A DNA stretch of 64,000 nucleotides from Escherichia phage vB_Eco4M-7, in sequence record MN176217, one strand, 5' to 3'. This document shows positions 11,505 through 19,922 of this stretch, one piece after another. Every line of letters begins with the position of its first letter. The first letter of the stretch is position 1. The position numbers and the translations under genes were made by a program. The notes below the pieces were generated by a model, which did no database searches, was not told the DNA's origin, and saw only the letters and a program-made list of their open reading frames with translations.

Positions 11505-12965
11505 ATGAATAAAATATTAACACATAATTGGAAATTCATGTACCAGTTGAATCCTGCTTTAAAAGAAGTCTGGAAGACAAAAGCGCGATACAAAGTAATA
11601 TACGGCGGTCGTGCATCTTCCAAATCGCACGATGCCGCTGGTTTTGCTATTTATTTGGCGGCAAACTTCAAATTAAAATTCCTTTGCGTTCGACAATTCC
11701 AGAACAAGATTTCTGAATCTGTATATACTCTATTAAAAGACAAAATAGAGATTTCTGATTTCAAAGATGAGTTCAATTTATTAAAGAACTCTATTGAACA
11801 TAAAAGAACTAAATCTGAATTTCTATTTTACGGTATCGCACGTAACGTTGATGAAATTAAATCAACAGAAGGTGTTGACGTCCTTTGGTTGGAAGAAGCG
11901 CACGCGCTTACTGAAGAACAGTGGGACATTATTGAGCCGACAATCCGTAAAGAAGGGTCCGAAATATGGATCATCTTTAACCCTGATGAAGAGGCCGATT
12001 TCGTCTACCAAAACTTTGTTATGCGACCGCCGAAGAATGCCATTGTTAAAAAGATAAACTGGCAAGATAATCCATTCTTGTCGCAAACAATGCTGGACGT
12101 TATCGCAGGTATGTACGAGCGTGACCCGAAAAAGGCAGAGCACGTTTATGGCGGTGTGCCGAAGACTGGCGGCGACAAATCTGTAATCAACCGCGCATTC
12201 GTTAAGGCCGCGCTAAATCTCCACAAACACCCTATGCTGGGGTGGAGTTTGTCAGGGTCTAACCGTATAGGCTTTGACGTAGCGGACGATGGCGACGACC
12301 TTAACGCCACTGCATTCGTCACAGGAAACGTATTGCGCGGCATCAAGACGTGGGAAGGTCTGGAAGATGAATTGTTGAAATCGGCAAGCGGAGTTTGGAA
12401 AGATGCGCTTACATTTGGCGCTTCTATAACTTATGACGCCATCGGTGTCGGCGCTTTTGCTGGTTCAAAATTTGATGAACTGAACGAGTATGCAATACAT
12501 GAAAATCCATCATTTCCAAGAATCGAATTTAATGCGTTCAATGCGCAAGGGTCTGTTGATGATCCTGATGACGTTTTTCTTGAATTACCACACGTTGAAA
12601 TACTCAATAAAGACCATTTCGCAAACATAAAAGCGCAAAAGTGGACTGAAATTGCAGAGAGATTCAGAAAGACATACGAATATGCAACTGGGCAAGCCGT
12701 ATATCCGACTGATGAATTGATTTCAATCGACACCGATGGTATACCGGAACTTGGGATTCCAGCTTGGACCACTGAAGAGATTGAGACGTTTCTTTTTGAG
12801 ATGTCAGCGCCGCGCAAAGATACGTCTGTTCTTGGCAAGTTCAAAGTTGAATCCAAAAAGGATATGGCAAAGCGTGGAGTTAAATCACCTAACAAAGCGG
12901 ACGCAGCAATCATGGCATTGATGAAACCAATCGTTGCAGCATCCGGCTTCTTCTCTAACCTTTAA
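11505..12965 (+). CDS. terL: Terminase large subunit
   Basis: N-terminal Walker A YGGRASSKSH, ATPase then nuclease-type acidic motifs; first gene of morphogenesis module; true start may be ATG 11538. Confidence 0.85.
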   Translation: MNKILTHNWKFMYQLNPALKEVWKTKARYKVIYGGRASSKSHDAAGFAIYLAANFKLKFLCVRQFQNKISESVYTLLKDKIEISDFKDEFNLLKNSIEHKRTKSEFLFYGIARNVDEIKSTEGVDVLWLEEAHALTEEQWDIIEPTIRKEGSEIWIIFNPDEEADFVYQNFVMRPPKNAIVKKINWQDNPFLSQTMLDVIAGMYERDPKKAEHVYGGVPKTGGDKSVINRAFVKAALNLHKHPMLGWSLSGSNRIGFDVADDGDDLNATAFVTGNVLRGIKTWEGLEDELLKSASGVWKDALTFGASITYDAIGVGAFAGSKFDELNEYAIHENPSFPRIEFNAFNAQGSVDDPDDVFLELPHVEILNKDHFANIKAQKWTEIAERFRKTYEYATGQAVYPTDELISIDTDGIPELGIPAWTTEEIETFLFEMSAPRKDTSVLGKFKVESKKDMAKRGVKSPNKADAAIMALMKPIVAASGFFSNL

Positions 12966-12968
12966 CAA

Positions 12969-13208
12969 TCAAAGCATTCCGTGCTGAAGGTCGAGTTTTC
13001 TTGCAGCAAATGACCTGGCACGGAATCGCTTACCAGCTCTTACTGCTTGCCGAATCTTCTTTTGCATACACTTACGGTCAAAATCGTTGCGGTCAACGGC
13101 TTCGAGTAAATCCCGACGCAAAGCACCTAGTGTCGACTTTTCGGATACTTCTATGCCCAGCGCGGCTGCAACATCTTTCAAAACATCGAGTTCGGTTAAC
13201 GTTCTCAT
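12969..13208 (-). CDS. hypothetical small basic protein
   Basis: ORF 79 aa on opposite strand between terminase and portal. Confidence 0.35.
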   Translation of the reverse strand: MRTLTELDVLKDVAAALGIEVSEKSTLGALRRDLLEAVDRNDFDRKCMQKKIRQAVRAGKRFRARSFAARKLDLQHGML

Positions 13209-13621
13209 TTGATAATCCCCTTGATGTCTGATTCTGCCATAAAGATTGGAGTGCCGCTGCCAGGAACAATAGAGCGCGTTACTTTGTCGAACATATCGTT
13301 CTCTTCAACTTGAATACGATAAAATTTATTTTTGGATGAAGATGGGCACAATCCAATAAATTTACCAATGCCGCGAACGCATTCATCTTCAAAGTATACT
13401 GTTTCACCTTGAATGGATTCGATGTTTTCAACCGGATACACCTTGCGACCTAAAAGCCATTCATCCATGGTCGCCTGCAACACGTTTCGCGCATCCAAAA
13501 TCCAAGGGTCAACTGTGGCACCTTCATATCGCGCAGCAGTGGCTTTTGCCAGCTCTTCATATTCGCACACATTTACTACTTCGCCTTGATGAAGGACGAC
13601 AAATACAATTGTTGTGCTCAT
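13205..13621 (-). CDS. hypothetical protein
   Basis: ORF 138 aa, overlaps downstream ORF start. Confidence 0.4.
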   Translation of the reverse strand: MSTTIVFVVLHQGEVVNVCEYEELAKATAARYEGATVDPWILDARNVLQATMDEWLLGRKVYPVENIESIQGETVYFEDECVRGIGKFIGLCPSSSKNKFYRIQVEENDMFDKVTRSIVPGSGTPIFMAESDIKGIIK

Positions 13622-13745: not shown

Positions 13746-13783
13746 ATAGATTGATTCCCTTTCACTGTCAGGTGGCGTTAACA

Positions 13784-16159
13784 ATGAAAATTCTTGGCAT
13801 AAAACTCTGGGAGAAGACGCAACCAGAAGCCGAACCAGCGGAGATGCCGCCAGGCGACCCATTGGCACCGTTTGAACGCCTTGAAAGGCGCGGCAGCGGT
13901 CAACGCTGGGAAAAGACTGAAAGCAATCGACCGACCTTTAAAACGGTTGATGACTTCCCTTTATATGAGCCTGATATCAACGGGGACGGTGTTGCAATCA
14001 TCAAAGGTCGCTCAGTAGATTCAGCAACCGTATCCAAAAAAGTTATGGATAATGCCTTAAAGAACATCAGTTCAGAAGGGCAGGTGAATCCATACACAGT
14101 GCCTATTCAGCTGCAAAACTGGTACTTATCGCAATCATTTATCGGATATCAAGCTTGCGCCATCATCGCGCAGCACTGGCTGGTGAACAAGGCTTGTTCC
14201 ATGGTAGGTCGCGATGCGGTCCGTAAAGGCTGGGAAGTAAAATCCAGCTCTGAGTCGGAATTGTCAGTACAGGCCAGCGAACGCCTAAAGCAAATTGATA
14301 AAGAATTTAATATCAAAGAGCACTTAGTTGAAGCCGAACGATTCAAGAATATTTTTGGCATTCGCGTCATCATATTTGACGTGCGCAGCGATGACCCAGA
14401 ATATTATAGCAAACCTTTTAACATCGATGGTGTGACAAAAGGGTCTTATAAGGGAATCATTCAGGTTGACCCTTATTGGATGATGCCATTCTTGACGTCT
14501 GAAAACACTGCGGACCCTGCATCACAGCATTTCTATGATCCAGAATATTGGGTGATCAGCGGACAACGTTATCACCGCAGCCACCTCATCATCTTGCGCA
14601 ACGATGAGCCAGCTGATATTCTCAAGCCGACTTATATCTATGGCGGCATTCCTCTGACTCAGCAGATTTATGAACGTATCTATGCCGCTGAACGTACCGC
14701 TAACGAAGCGCCATTGCTGGCGATGTCTAAGCGTACAACCACGCTGCGGACCGACGTTGACAAGGCGATTGCCAATGAGCGGTCGTTTGCCGAACGTTTG
14801 ATGATGTGGATTAAGTACCGCGACAACTATGCGGTAAAAGTGCTTGGTCAGAAAGAAGAGATGGACCAGTTTGACATCAACTTGTCAGACTTCGACAGCA
14901 TCATCATGAACCAGTACCAGCTGGTGGCCGCAATCGCAAAAGTTCCGTCGACAAAACTGTTAGGGACGTCACCTAAAGGCTTTAACGCCACTGGTGAGTT
15001 CGAAATGGTCAGCTATCACGAAGAATTGGAGACTTGTCAGCAGCACGATTTGACGAAGATTCTTGACCGTCACTATAAAATCCTTTTGAAATCTGAAGGT
15101 GTTGAAGTCGACGTTAAAGTGGCATGGGAGCCAGTTGGTTCACTTACTGCTACTCAGCTTGCAGAGATTAACGACAAACGAGCGAATACTGGTAAGACTC
15201 TCATTGATGCTGGCGTCATCTCCCCTGATGAAGAGCGCGACCGCATCAAGGACGACAAAAACAGCGGCTACAACCGTTTGCCAGAAGATACAGCAGAAGA
15301 AACCCCAGGGATGTCTCCAGAGAATATGGCATTGCTTGGCAAGTCTGCTGGTGAAGTTCTGCAAGGCAAAGCCGATATTGAACAGGCCAAAGCTGATGTC
15401 GTCAAGATGAGCGGCCAGTTCTATAGTAAGACTGGTATCATGCCGGAAGGTGCCGCGCGCGGTGAGTTGGCAGAAAACCCTGACAGGGCACCAGTTGAGA
15501 TTAACATGGATGATACCGATGACGAATCAAGCCATCAGGTTGATGTCCTAACGCAACTGAAAGAAGGTCTGGAGGGTATTGCTGACTATTACCTTAAAGA
15601 AGGTCAGGATGTGGATTTTGACCCTCAAAAAGACGCAAGGTCTGTGCAGCCGTCTACCCTTCCAAGCGTAAAAGGAAATGTGGTGAATTTACGCCACAAC
15701 GTAGGGAAGATGGATGCCGCATCGCTGCCTAAGATGAAGTTGCATGGAATGATTCTTGGAATCGAGAATCCTCGCAACAGCATTCGCAGGGGTAACAGCC
15801 TTGATGGTGAATGGGCAGTTAAGATGCCGCACCATTACGGATTCATCAAAGGAACCAAGGGCGCTGATGGTGATGAAGTCGACTGCTTTGTTGGACCAAA
15901 TATGAAGTCGCCTAAAGTATTCATCATTAACCAAAATGATAATTATTCTGGCGAATTTGATGAACACAAGTGTATGCTTGGATTCGATTCAGCAGAAGAA
16001 GCGAAAGAAGCATATCAGGCATCATTTGGTAACGGTTGGAATGGATTCGACTCAATCCACGAATTGGATGTAGACTCATTCAAGGAGTGGTTGAAGGGTG
16101 ATTGCTCTCAAGCATATGGAGCACTCAATAATCCTACTAATTCACCGAAGCAAGGTTGA
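13784..16159 (+). CDS. Portal protein with about 130-aa C-terminal extension carrying an inorganic pyrophosphatase-like signature
   Basis: Large ORF directly after terminase region; ATG 13784 with GGTGG RBS; C-terminal DGDEVDC motif (15864-15884). Confidence 0.6.
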   Translation: MKILGIKLWEKTQPEAEPAEMPPGDPLAPFERLERRGSGQRWEKTESNRPTFKTVDDFPLYEPDINGDGVAIIKGRSVDSATVSKKVMDNALKNISSEGQVNPYTVPIQLQNWYLSQSFIGYQACAIIAQHWLVNKACSMVGRDAVRKGWEVKSSSESELSVQASERLKQIDKEFNIKEHLVEAERFKNIFGIRVIIFDVRSDDPEYYSKPFNIDGVTKGSYKGIIQVDPYWMMPFLTSENTADPASQHFYDPEYWVISGQRYHRSHLIILRNDEPADILKPTYIYGGIPLTQQIYERIYAAERTANEAPLLAMSKRTTTLRTDVDKAIANERSFAERLMMWIKYRDNYAVKVLGQKEEMDQFDINLSDFDSIIMNQYQLVAAIAKVPSTKLLGTSPKGFNATGEFEMVSYHEELETCQQHDLTKILDRHYKILLKSEGVEVDVKVAWEPVGSLTATQLAEINDKRANTGKTLIDAGVISPDEERDRIKDDKNSGYNRLPEDTAEETPGMSPENMALLGKSAGEVLQGKADIEQAKADVVKMSGQFYSKTGIMPEGAARGELAENPDRAPVEINMDDTDDESSHQVDVLTQLKEGLEGIADYYLKEGQDVDFDPQKDARSVQPSTLPSVKGNVVNLRHNVGKMDAASLPKMKLHGMILGIENPRNSIRRGNSLDGEWAVKMPHHYGFIKGTKGADGDEVDCFVGPNMKSPKVFIINQNDNYSGEFDEHKCMLGFDSAEEAKEAYQASFGNGWNGFDSIHELDVDSFKEWLKGDCSQAYGALNNPTNSPKQG

Positions 16160-16160
16160 T

Positions 16161-17012
16161 ATGGCTTTTAAAGCTTCGAAAAAACGTGAACGCCGCTCAC
16201 CCGATAGAATCGGGCGCGGCAGTCCGATAATCCCATCCAACGCTATTGCGATGGCCTATCGTCGTGAGATGAAAGGTCTTTGCTATACGATGATTGACGA
16301 CTATCAAGCAGGAATTGCTGAGTGGCTTGAAAAGAAGCAGGTGAAAAAGTTCTTTGCGCAAGACTCTGCTGATTCAACTTTTCAAACCTTGATGAAGCGA
16401 CTGCAACTGAAATGGGCAAAAGCCTTCGCCCGTGTCGGGTCAAAGATTGCCGCAGATTTCATCAAGTCAGTTGAAAAGGGCGCCACTTCTGCTACATTTG
16501 CAAGTCTTAAATCTGCAGGAATAGAAGCGCCAAAAGCCACATATAATAAATTCGTTGAGAACACTCTTAAAACAAGCGAGACGTTCAACACGACTTTAGT
16601 GACTAAGGTTGGCGAAGATATTCACAACAGGGTGTACGAAGCGGTGATGCTTTCGCTGACTTCGCCAGACCCAGCACAACAAGGCACGTCAGGCATTCAG
16701 GCGGCATTAAGAAATGTAAAACACTTCTCTGCAAAACGCGTAGACCTTATCGCTAAAGACCAAACAAGCAAACTTTATTGCGTATTAAGTGATGAAAGGA
16801 TGCGACAGAATGGCGTTGAGGAATTTGAGTGGGCGCATTCAGGAGCAGGCAAAGAGCCGCGAATATCACATGAGCACGTCGACGGCATGAGATTCAAGCT
16901 TGATGACAAACGCTTATGGGAAGTAGGTGGAGAACTTAAGTTCAAAAAGGGTGACATCGGTCCTCCTGGATGGGCGATACACTGCAAGTGCAGAAAAATA
17001 CCAATTATCTGA
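16161..17012 (+). CDS. Head morphogenesis protein (MuF / SPP1 gp7-like minor head protein)
   Basis: Position after portal; C-terminal HEHVDG...W pattern typical of the family. Confidence 0.55.
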   Translation: MAFKASKKRERRSPDRIGRGSPIIPSNAIAMAYRREMKGLCYTMIDDYQAGIAEWLEKKQVKKFFAQDSADSTFQTLMKRLQLKWAKAFARVGSKIAADFIKSVEKGATSATFASLKSAGIEAPKATYNKFVENTLKTSETFNTTLVTKVGEDIHNRVYEAVMLSLTSPDPAQQGTSGIQAALRNVKHFSAKRVDLIAKDQTSKLYCVLSDERMRQNGVEEFEWAHSGAGKEPRISHEHVDGMRFKLDDKRLWEVGGELKFKKGDIGPPGWAIHCKCRKIPII

Positions 17013-18503: not shown

Positions 18504-19922
18504 ATGCGAATGCAAACGGCACGCGAAATTGACAAAAATGGATTCTTGACGATTATGGGTTGTCCAATTTCGTCATTTGGCATTTTTGATTATTCTGCTG
18601 GTCAAGTTGGTCTTGATGGTGATCCGAATCGCATCGTAAAAGTCTATCGCCCTGAGTCAGCGGTGAAAGACCCCGAAGCGATAGATTCATTCAAAAATAT
18701 CCCTTTCATCGACAATCACGAAATGCTTTCTGGATTTGAAGGTGATGAGGATAACACAGCACCCGAAGAGTATGGAGTTGATGGCGTTCTGACTGGCAAT
18801 GTTTATTATGACAAGCCATGGATGCGCGGCGACCTTAAAGTGTTTAGCCGTCGTCTGAAGAAGGCCATTGATTCTGGAAAGGTTGACTTGTCTTTGGGCT
18901 ATGACTGTGAATTCATCATACAGTCTGGAGAGTTTGACGGGCAGCCGTATGAAGTGGTGCAGACAACTCTTCGCGGCAACCACATTGCTCTCGTGGACGT
19001 TGGTCGAGTACCAGGTGCACGGGTGCTGGATGGTCGTTGCTTTGACCATCTTTGTTTGACGACTGTAACACCATCCAACGAGGATTTAGACATGCCAAAA
19101 CCGTTAAAAGGTAAAGCGCGTGATAATGCTGTTGAACAGCTGAAATCACTGATCCCTGCGCTCGAACAATTTCTGAATGAAGAGAGTACTGAAGCTGCTC
19201 ATCAGGACGAAGTTGAAGTGAAAGCAGAAGAGAAGGACTCAACCGAAAATCGTGAAGAAGTAATGGTTGATCCAGAAGTCAAGGCAGAAGCAGAAGAAAC
19301 CCCAGAAGGTGAAGAGAAGTTTGAAGTTGAAACTGAATCTAACGCTGGCGGCGAACTTCCGCAATTGATCAGCCAAATCGAAGCACTTATTGCAAAACTG
19401 AAAGGTGGCGCGGTAGGTGATGAAGAAGAAGTTGAAGCCGAAGTCAAAGACGAAGAAGTTGAAGTCAAGGCTGAAGATGTATCACCTTGCGACAAAGCTG
19501 AAGATGTGGTTAGCGGCCTGCAAAACAGCAACGTAAAGGGGGCTTCGGTCGAAAAAGATGACAAACCGACAAAAGCGGCGAAAGCGTCGCCAGGTCCAGC
19601 AAAAGGGGAACACTCAATGGCATCTGATTCAGCAGTTGCTGCTTTCTACGCTGATTCTGCTCGTAAGAATAGCCTCTACCAGCGCCTGTCTAAAGTTGTT
19701 GGTGCCTTTGATCATGCAACTATGGACTCCAAGTCCGTAGCGAAATATGGCGCTAAAAAGTTAGGCTTGAAGTGCGTTGATGGTGCTGAGTTTGACGTGG
19801 TGGATAATTATCTACGCGGCGTTGAGCACGGTCAAAAACAGCGTGTAGTCGCAAAACAAAAGGCCGCTGCGGATTCTGCAGCAACTGACGAAGCATTTGA
19901 AGCTTGGTTGAAAGGGGAATAA
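18504..19922 (+). CDS. Putative prohead protease / scaffolding fusion protein
   Basis: Globular N-terminal 190 aa then long E/K/A-rich acidic low-complexity region; sits between head morphogenesis and capsid genes. Confidence 0.45.
   Translation: MRMQTAREIDKNGFLTIMGCPISSFGIFDYSAGQVGLDGDPNRIVKVYRPESAVKDPEAIDSFKNIPFIDNHEMLSGFEGDEDNTAPEEYGVDGVLTGNVYYDKPWMRGDLKVFSRRLKKAIDSGKVDLSLGYDCEFIIQSGEFDGQPYEVVQTTLRGNHIALVDVGRVPGARVLDGRCFDHLCLTTVTPSNEDLDMPKPLKGKARDNAVEQLKSLIPALEQFLNEESTEAAHQDEVEVKAEEKDSTENREEVMVDPEVKAEAEETPEGEEKFEVETESNAGGELPQLISQIEALIAKLKGGAVGDEEEVEAEVKDEEVEVKAEDVSPCDKAEDVVSGLQNSNVKGASVEKDDKPTKAAKASPGPAKGEHSMASDSAVAAFYADSARKNSLYQRLSKVVGAFDHATMDSKSVAKYGAKKLGLKCVDGAEFDVVDNYLRGVEHGQKQRVVAKQKAAADSAATDEAFEAWLKGE

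Follow-up and report, generated by a model that had tools for sequence, protein, structure and literature searches.

Organization of the portal gene

The portal gene of Escherichia phage vB_Eco4M-7 encodes a normal Phage_portal_3 portal joined, through a poorly conserved, acidic, disordered linker, to a domain of the Pfam family PF18823 (InPase). This domain forms the last ~135 residues and is homologous to family I inorganic pyrophosphatases (PPases), but trimmed down. All coordinates (Table 1) refer to the window, i.e., the whole stretch of 64,000 nucleotides that was analysed (sequence record MN176217). The 802-aa ORF named in a preliminary description is present; it is the longest ORF, counted from the first TTG (13751). 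The ATG at 13784, which is the start annotated in GenBank relatives, gives a protein of 791 aa. The ORF showed 100% identity to PP596836.1 and matched PHROG 4660 over residues 27-788. Two strings quoted in that description were located at residues 695-716 (HYGFIKGTKGADGDEVDCFVGP) and 749-759 (EEAKEAYQASF). The region it gave for the extension, 15760-16159, does hold a PPase-like tail; however, position 15760 is not a codon start in this frame (the nearest ones are 15758 and 15761), and the domain begins earlier according to Pfam.

Table 1. Features of the portal locus of vB_Eco4M-7
Feature	Coordinates	Strand	Residues	Remark
Large terminase (Terminase_3)	11505..12965	+		upstream of portal
Portal-InPase gene	13751..16159	+		stop codon 16157-16159
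N-terminal variable region	13784..14143	+		predicted disordered, pLDDT <50
Portal core, Pfam PF06381 Phage_portal_3	14147..15187	+	133-479	E 4.5e-88
Long helix after crown	15317..15433	+	523-561	AF2 helix 512-550 in 791-aa numbering
Acidic, variable, indel-rich linker	15434..15529	+	562-593	predicted disordered, pLDDT <50
Amphipathic helix ahead of InPase	15530..15589	+	594-613	predicted, pLDDT 68-91
InPase domain, Pfam PF18823	15728..16096	+	660-782	compact relative of family I inorganic pyrophosphatase fold
DGDEVDC (D706, D708, D711)	15866..15886	+	706-712	PPase signature match
D737-E738-H739-K740, second nearly invariant polar cluster	15959..15970	+		on predicted beta strand
MuF-like head morphogenesis protein	16161..17012	+		immediately 3' of portal gene
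DUF2213 head maturation protease/scaffold	18504..19922	+		homologue of Pa193 gp24

The portal part scored 295.8 bits against PF06381 (cut-off 33.8), has a terminase gene nearby upstream, and is 63% identical to Pa193 gp19, a dodecameric orthologue of solved structure (PDB 9B41; 54% identity overall). Peptides 23-43 and 56-64 of the N-terminal region were detected in virion preparations; the equivalent 93-96 N-terminal residues are not visible in the Pa193 and E217 structures. Judged by pairwise alignment, helix 523-561 is probably the C-terminal barrel helix, which in E217 and Pa193 points into the capsid. Among 65 orthologues, linker 562-593 had the lowest conservation and the most frequent insertions. 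The wider linker region (residues 541-655) has a pI of 4.45 and only 31% identity to Pa193, with 28 gap columns.

Helix 594-613 is followed by a conserved motif that is PEG in the orthologue consensus and KEG in the vB_Eco4M-7 ORF. Similar helices begin the short InPase proteins P0001 and P0003 in the alignment, and this confidently predicted helix seems to belong to the InPase module too. P0003 looks like a standalone InPase gene in a head module. P0001 was rejected as a standalone gene; its reading frame runs to the edge of the contig without closing.

Relation of the C-terminal domain to inorganic pyrophosphatases

PF18823 matched with 157.0 bits for the whole protein and 160.1 bits for a C-terminal fragment (cut-off 26.8), covering positions 12-135 of the 135 in the model. 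Inorganic pyrophosphatases accounted for 20 of the 21 PDB matches of the family profile; the remaining one was the Pa193 portal. The top matches in fold searches were all PPases, consistent with a PPase-type beta-barrel fold. The YGFI-DGDEVD core was aligned by hhalign with 86-93% probability, and YGFI...DGDEVD was paired with Y55, D65, D67 and D70 of E. coli PPase. The PROSITE PPASE signature is D-[SGDN]-D-[PE]-[LIVMF]-D-[LIVMGAC]. With the whole window translated in six frames, this pattern has a single match, at 15866-15886 (+). Composition-preserving shuffling of the ORF produced it in 202 of 200,000 trials, i.e., ~0.001 matches are expected per ORF.

We considered it extremely improbable that the motif matches by chance or that the tail is a normal crown or wing segment of the portal, unrelated to pyrophosphatases. 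The one observation in favour of this explanation was that the classical PPase family PF00719 stayed under its cut-off (18.2 and 20.7 bits versus 23.5), with only residues 690-714 aligned. The PF18823 score, the shuffle statistics and the fold searches refute it. In addition, the portal fold stops at residue 528 in the solved orthologues, and BcepB1A gp28, a portal with 46% identity, has no such tail. Because a PPase-like fold was found, the motif is not a chance match and the tail is not a portal segment, the pyrophosphatase-like reading is supported.

Conservation was evaluated in 163 diverse homologues with very different protein architectures, including unrelated non-portal proteins. Core residues of acidic, basic and aromatic type were at least 94% conserved, and E672, R679, Y696, D706, D711, D737, E738, K740 and Y755 at least 99%. 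Conservation of the signature aspartates D706, D708 and D711 was 99%, 97% and 100%, respectively, and that of D737, E738, H739 and K740 was 99%, 100%, 94% and 100%. The candidate metal-coordinating acids (E672, D706, D708, D711, D737 and E738) were thus all present and 97-100% conserved. The dN/dS value versus phage Mansfield was 0.013.

The active site of E. coli PPase comprises about 13 residues (E20, K29, E31, R43, Y51, Y55, D65, D67, D70, D97, D102, K104, Y141 and K142). Residues were mapped onto it with hhalign (default, low MAC threshold, and global) and MAFFT, and the mapping is reliable only over a 24-column core. A search with E. coli Ppa, made to build a PPase profile, hardly extended the reach; the 120 relatives listed all shared 82% identity or more with it. 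Counterparts of Y55, D65, D67 and D70 were aligned confidently; in sequence alignment, D706, D708 and D711 correspond to the metal-binding D65, D67 and D70. With low confidence, E672 is probably equivalent to E20 and R679 to K29; the same alignment places E31 at G681, i.e., E31 would be lost. The D737-E738-H739-K740 cluster is a candidate counterpart of D102/K104, to which E738/K740 may correspond by position on the modelled strand. Sequence aligners placed it elsewhere, pairing EFDEHK with E. coli EYDHIK, contrary to the AF2 strand order. Conserved counterparts of E31, R43 and K142 were not found in InPase by hhalign or MAFFT across the 163 homologues; pyrophosphate may therefore not be the substrate. 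The literature searched contained no assay of any PF18823 protein.

The segment from E672 to Y696 has 23 residues; in E. coli PPase, 34 residues separate E20 from Y55. A short hairpin between E672 and Y696 (domain residues 29-42) is still predicted by the AF2 model. Iyer, Burroughs and Aravind (2017; PMC5512222), who defined InPase, described it as lacking the extra beta hairpin found between the first two core strands of solved PPases.

Virion location and possible roles of the InPase domain

Fusion of InPase to a portal had been called unusual; it is instead the rule in this phage clade and was described in 2017, with BcepF1 gp124 named as portal fusion (PMC5512222). It occurs in about 350 phage genomes, including all Pbunavirus phages. 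Close orthologues of the portal that belong to at least five clusters, with the same gene order as in the window, carry an ADP-ribosyltransferase exoenzyme domain after InPase. InPase also occurs together with DarA_N in a 1221-aa internal head protein of Xanthomonas phage Rb1. Giant polyvalent proteins of up to 6421 aa carry it in their thousands (11,285 cluster representatives).

In E217 and Pa193 the portal is a dodecamer whose model ends at residue 528; its barrel projects into the head, and residues 529-765 gave no density in cryo-EM. Published MS data for CsCl-purified vB_Eco4M-7, which we re-mapped, contain seven InPase peptides, including the motif peptide GADGDEVDCFVGPNMK, and seven linker peptides, and all of these map exactly to the portal ORF. 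Purified virion preparations contain the whole portal-InPase polypeptide region; PF18823 lies here in a virion-packaged phage protein. Because the reported peptides were all fully tryptic and the linker was well covered, cleavage is neither shown nor excluded. The DUF2213 protease, also detected in virion preparations, is the only nearby-encoded candidate for cutting the tail off the portal.

We regard it as reasonably likely that InPase is an enzyme cargo carried on the portal inside the capsid, and that it acts early in infection, once it has left the portal. This is the same reading as that proposed by Iyer et al. (2017). Since portals are dodecameric with the barrel pointing into the head, 12 copies of InPase would lie inside the capsid beside the DNA exit channel. 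The portal would serve as a packaging handle for the enzyme, as MuF, DarA-N and giant polyvalent carriers do in other phages. From its conserved residues, InPase is probably an active Mg-dependent phosphoanhydride hydrolase. Once freed from the portal, it would act as infection begins, possibly on pyrophosphate or on a small molecule that contains pyrophosphate, for example a signal derived from a nucleotide. ADP-ribosyltransferases of the family found in the relatives modify cellular proteins, so a portal tail that bears one is expected to reach the cell. Against the cargo reading, InPase is covalently fused to the portal, with no known cleavage site.

A more specific version, which we regard as possible but rather unlikely, is that InPase is specialised for a nucleotide-derived or other phosphoanhydride signal (alarmones, defence second messengers), is cut off by the head protease, and is injected before the DNA to counter host defences. 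If this were true, the portal C-terminus would be a general cargo slot, into which relatives load an ADP-ribosyltransferase, and the well-studied therapeutic Pbunavirus phages would gain an overlooked injected effector.

The covalent fusion, with no protease site identified, also fits another explanation: InPase stays tethered in the capsid for the virion's whole life and has a structural or assembly role, with no enzyme delivered. Filling of axial space above the portal barrel, binding of Mg2+, and sensing or retention of the DNA end are examples of such roles. By our own arithmetic, a linker of ~100 residues can bridge no more than ~35 nm, versus the ~130-nm tail of the related phage Pa193; the linker is too short for passage through the tail, and a domain that is still tethered therefore cannot reach the host. 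The acidic character of the linker is in line with a tethered role, as are data on the orthologue of Pbunavirus SCUT-S1. In ghost particles emptied of DNA, its coverage was 59% (~451 of 765 residues), more than the 435-residue visible core could give; this suggests that portal parts outside the core are retained by emptied capsids, at least when these have been treated with LiCl. However, the conserved set consists exactly of catalytic-type Asp, Glu, Lys, Arg and Tyr residues and is kept in the 163 homologues from non-portal contexts; the 46%-identical portal of BcepB1A functions without the tail; and a toxin-type ADP-ribosyltransferase, as appended in relatives, would make no sense if locked in the capsid. 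We therefore judged a permanently tethered role improbable.

It is equally doubtful that InPase works late in the producing cell, before or during head assembly, clearing pyrophosphate to drive phage DNA or nucleotide synthesis, with its presence in the virion a by-product. The portal gene sits with those for head assembly, between terminase and head protease, and products of such genes are generally made late and in quantity. However, E. coli possesses a PPase of its own that is very active and essential. Nor does late action explain the standalone InPase gene in a head module, or why InPase was repeatedly attached to capsid-targeting modules (portal, DarA_N, MuF-context polyvalent proteins). 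In its favour, Iyer et al. (PMC5512222) list pyrophosphate clearance aiding replication or transcription as a possibility.

A role related to the terminase was also considered. Terminases release ADP and phosphate and yield no pyrophosphate, and this candidate was rejected.

Comparison with known systems

The domain family, its portal fusion and the proposed role were all published in 2017; the finding is correct but not new. Databases already label such portal-InPase proteins. The carriers of the fusion include Pbunavirus phages used in therapy and O157-specific Wifcevirus phages. If InPase is injected as an enzyme, it would offer a simple and genetically tractable case of the portal as a delivery handle, and might reveal a new phage counter to host signalling.

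The closest systems are full-length orthologues, the portals of BcepF1 (gp124, YP_001039808.1; 53% identity over 805 columns) and of E217 and Pa193 (gp19). They share with the vB_Eco4M-7 portal the PF06381 + PF18823 architecture and the same neighbours, a MuF-like protein and a DUF2213 protease. vB_Eco4M-7 differs from them in its host, E. coli, and in the sequence and length of the linker. The E217 and Pa193 structure papers neither saw nor mentioned a pyrophosphatase-like domain.

E. coli Ppa has the fold class and the Y-G-[FY]-I ... D-x-D-x-x-D core in common with InPase. However, InPase is ~40 residues shorter, has invariant residues of its own (W688, Q728, H739 and Y755), and is fused to a virion protein, whereas Ppa is a free cytoplasmic hexamer.

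By score, the portal tail is a clear member of the InPase family of polyvalent proteins (PMC5512222), with which it shares the conserved residues and the proposed logic of a virion-packaged effector. The vB_Eco4M-7 portal is a small carrier that bears InPase as its sole effector, whereas polyvalent proteins carry up to 15 domains; the portal also has no processing metallopeptidase within the same protein. T4 Alt, MuF-toxin fusions and the P1 Dar proteins are likewise head-carried enzymes attached to a head-assembly component, and the domain that follows InPase in some portal orthologues is of an Alt-like ADP-ribosyltransferase family. Injection of T4 Alt is experimentally established, as cited in PMC5512222, whereas release and injection of the portal tail are proposals.

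Identity and conservation of the C-terminal domain

The preliminary description had claimed a PPase-like signature at the C-terminus of the portal ORF, at 15760-16159. The two peptides quoted for it were found at residues 695-716 and 749-759, and the PPase-type seven-residue pattern, DGDEVDC, at residues 706-712 (15866-15886). The C-terminal location was correct; position 15760 does not lie in frame, and the true start of the domain is further upstream. The pattern was matched once across the six frames of the window and occurred in 202 of 200,000 shuffles (~0.001 expected in an ORF of the same composition).

A Pfam scan assigned residues 133-479 to PF06381 (Phage_portal_3; 295.8 bits) and residues 660-782 to PF18823 (InPase; 157 bits, cut-off 26.8). 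The classical PPase family PF00719 matched residues 690-714 only and, with 18-21 bits, fell short of its 23.5-bit cut-off. When a profile of 18 homologues was searched against PDB sequences, the Pa193 portal was retrieved first, followed by 20 inorganic pyrophosphatases, each of which aligned over the signature stretch. Using hhalign, MPHHYGFIKGTKGADGDEVDCFVG was paired with a 24-residue segment of E. coli PPase (sequence identical to PDB 4UM4) at 86-93% probability, and the core alignment took in Y55, D65, D67, and D70 of that enzyme. The AlphaFold2 model of residues 650-802 was confident (pLDDT 90.6, pTM 0.83). These profile, alignment, and model results indicate that the domain is a genuine but distant, shortened relative of family I PPases, and the homology proposed in the preliminary description was borne out.

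The model contains a short beta hairpin at domain residues 29-42 (window 15815-15856), following the first core strand and preceding the YGFI strand. InPase domains have been described as lacking the hairpin present at that site in solved PPases (PMC5512222). The hairpin region of the window ORF is ~10 residues shorter than that of E. coli PPase, yet in the model it does not look absent.

Conservation was determined in 163 homologues, one per 50%-identity cluster, drawn from proteins 101-6421 residues long. E672, R679, W688, Y696, G697, D706, D711, Q728, D737, E738, K740, and Y755 were 99-100% conserved, D708 97%, and H739 94%. The InPase part differed from that of phage Mansfield by 37 synonymous and 3 non-synonymous changes (dN/dS 0.013). 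This pattern fits a putative active site that is working rather than decayed. The mapping onto the classical catalytic set is secure in part only. Counterparts of the four core residues aligned by hhalign are confident; E20=E672 and K29=R679 are of low confidence, and E31 aligns to an invariant glycine. For D102 and K104, predicted strand order suggests E738 and K740; sequence aligners instead pair EFDEHK with another E. coli PPase segment. Neither R43 nor K142 had a conserved counterpart in the InPase alignments; in classical PPases these two residues hold the leaving phosphate. With so incomplete a match, the substrate may be something other than pyrophosphate, a possibility likewise raised by Iyer et al. 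(PMC5512222).

Gene neighbourhood and protein architecture

The window ORF (2409 bases) is 100% identical to that of Escherichia phage vB_Eco4M-7n (PP596836.1, genus Wifcevirus) and shares 91-97% identity with 27 further records from Escherichia and Shigella phages. In these records the product is labelled 'portal protein', 'minor head protein', or 'hypothetical protein'. Translation from the first TTG (13751) gives 802 aa, and from the ATG at 13784, 791 aa. All annotated relatives begin at this ATG, and in Mansfield a ribosome-binding site is annotated ahead of it; the 802-aa translation probably overstates the true length by 11 residues. The gene sits in a normal head module.

Features of the head module (window coordinates) and of the portal-InPase protein (residues, 791-aa numbering; AlphaFold2 monomer model)
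Feature	Position	Strand	Remarks
Large terminase	11505-12965		First in head-module order
Two small reverse-strand genes	12969-13621	-	79 and 138 aa, without informative family; between terminase and portal
Portal-InPase gene	13751-16159	+	
MuF-like head morphogenesis protein	16161-17012		After portal-InPase gene
Protein with head-fibre-like segment	17020-17940		306 aa; after MuF-like protein
DUF2213 head maturation protease/scaffold	18504-19922		Last in listed head-module order
N-terminus	Residues 1-120		Disordered
Portal core			After N-terminus
Long helix	Residues 512-550		
Disordered stretch	Residues 551-582		
Amphipathic helix	Residues 583-602; window 15530-15589		Fairly confident; ahead of InPase
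InPase domain			C-terminal; pLDDT 87-96

The reverse-strand pair breaks up the forward head module; a metagenomic relative (locus L007) has two reverse genes at the same site, one with DUF2786/DUF7168. The protein with the head-fibre-like segment, whose role is unannotated in vB_Eco4M-7, gave a short match to head fibre family PF11133 and matches to tail-fibre-like PHROGs, and its virion MS coverage was high (73%). The C-terminal half of the DUF2213 protein is long and acidic. The protein is abundant in preparations of purified virions, where 28 peptides cover 58% of it. Its homologue Pa193 gp24, termed scaffold, forms a helical bundle beneath the capsid five-fold vertices. From this abundance and the position of gp24, the DUF2213 protein seems to be a protease-scaffold partly retained in the head.

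Among 65 orthologues (791-aa numbering), conservation was high at ~101-520, collapsed at 521-640, and recovered at 641-780, with insertions clustered at 541-580. Identity to Pa193 gp19 was 63% in the portal part, 31% in the linker (28 gap columns), and 58% in the InPase part. The linker is acidic (pI 4.45). Mean pLDDT of the full-length monomer model was 70. In the orthologue consensus, a conserved PEG motif comes after the amphipathic helix; the window ORF has KEG there. The short InPase proteins P0001 and P0003 start with similar helices; thus, helix and InPase together may form the mobile unit.

The portal tail in the particle and its possible role

The orthologous 765-aa portals of Pseudomonas phages E217 and Pa193 are dodecamers modelled at residues 97-528 and 94-528, respectively; the modelled part ends in a helical barrel pointing into the head. 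No density was obtained for residues 529-765, and both structure papers leave the pyrophosphatase-like domain unmentioned. Published MS of CsCl-purified vB_Eco4M-7 reported 20 peptides for the portal-InPase protein, all of which mapped exactly to the window ORF: 7 in the InPase region (including GADGDEVDCFVGPNMK and MPHHYGFIK), 7 in the linker (483-648), 2 in the N-terminus, and 4 in the portal core. The InPase and linker peptides demonstrate that the portal tail is made and present in purified phage. All peptides were fully tryptic and compatible with an attached or a detached tail, so the attachment state is not readable from them. Peptide-spectrum counts were very uneven (439 of 559 in the InPase region, 6 of 559 in the 347-residue portal core) and dominated by two His-rich peptides; ionisation or digestion bias, or an excess of free domain, could account for this.

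The most likely reading is that the portal acts as a handle placing 12 copies of a small predicted metal-dependent phosphoanhydride hydrolase in the head, beside the exit channel, for use as infection starts. Release is the weak point of this mechanism. The ~100 linker residues span at most ~35 nm and the tail of the related phage Pa193 is ~130 nm; a tethered domain therefore cannot reach the cell. The head protease could plausibly cut the tail off the portal. In the Pbunavirus SCUT-S1, coverage of the orthologue in DNA-emptied ghost particles was 59% (~451 of 765 residues). This exceeds the 435-residue visible core, so some non-core part stayed with the emptied capsids, a hint that the portal tail is retained. 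The two main rival readings, both less likely, are a permanently tethered structural or ion-binding module, which such retention would suit, and an enzyme working in the producing cell.

Distribution, domain contexts, and prior description

By tblastn, 470 phage records contain the domain and ~350 have the complete portal-linker-InPase arrangement; the latter are Pbunavirus, Wifcevirus, and Serratia, Xanthomonas, Xylella, and Burkholderia phages. PF06381 and PF18823 occurred together in 120 of the 120 best protein clusters, one of which carries the NCBI name 'inorganic pyrophosphatase'. The 813-aa orthologue of Luteibacter phage vB_LflM-Pluto (P0345) is called just 'inorganic pyrophosphatase' in NCBI and UniProt, which hides its portal identity. 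Clearly related portals without the tail exist, such as BcepB1A gp28 (46.5% identical over residues 113-514). The InPase family comprised 11,285 cluster representatives (E<=0.001) among 1.84 billion proteins, with members mostly in very large multidomain proteins; in BFVD, the label 'Inorganic pyrophosphatase domain-containing protein' is already in use, taken over from UniProt.

At least five clusters of close orthologues (P0023, P0302, P0308, P0358, and P0389; 1191-1321 aa), ~50% identical to the window portal, combine three domains; in the four of them that were scanned, portal and InPase are followed by a C-terminal ADP-ribosyltransferase exoenzyme (PF03496). P0302 (L007:8001-11966) lies in the same order as in the window: terminase, two reverse genes, portal fusion, MuF, DUF2213. 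In Xanthomonas phage Rb1 (L003:5890-9555), a 1221-aa 'internal head protein' carries InPase (28-159) and DarA_N (231-352); its neighbours, an M12B-like metallopeptidase and a giant protein of ATPase type, are those of a classic polyvalent-protein locus. Another head module contains a 211-aa InPase gene that stands alone. These contexts point to a predicted capsid-internal cargo, partnered with enzymes acting on host components.

The fusion, called unusual in the preliminary description, is the norm in this clade of phages and has been described before; structural work on these phages has overlooked the InPase domain. Our literature search found no paper testing InPase activity. Iyer, Burroughs and Aravind (J Bacteriol 2017, PMC5512222) defined InPase as a domain of polyvalent proteins and proposed that it is packaged and injected, hydrolysing a nucleotide-like signal or inhibitory pyrophosphate. 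Their example of a version fused to a portal, BcepF1.124 (YP_001039808.1), is a full-length orthologue of the window ORF, 53% identical, with both Pfam domains and the neighbours in common.
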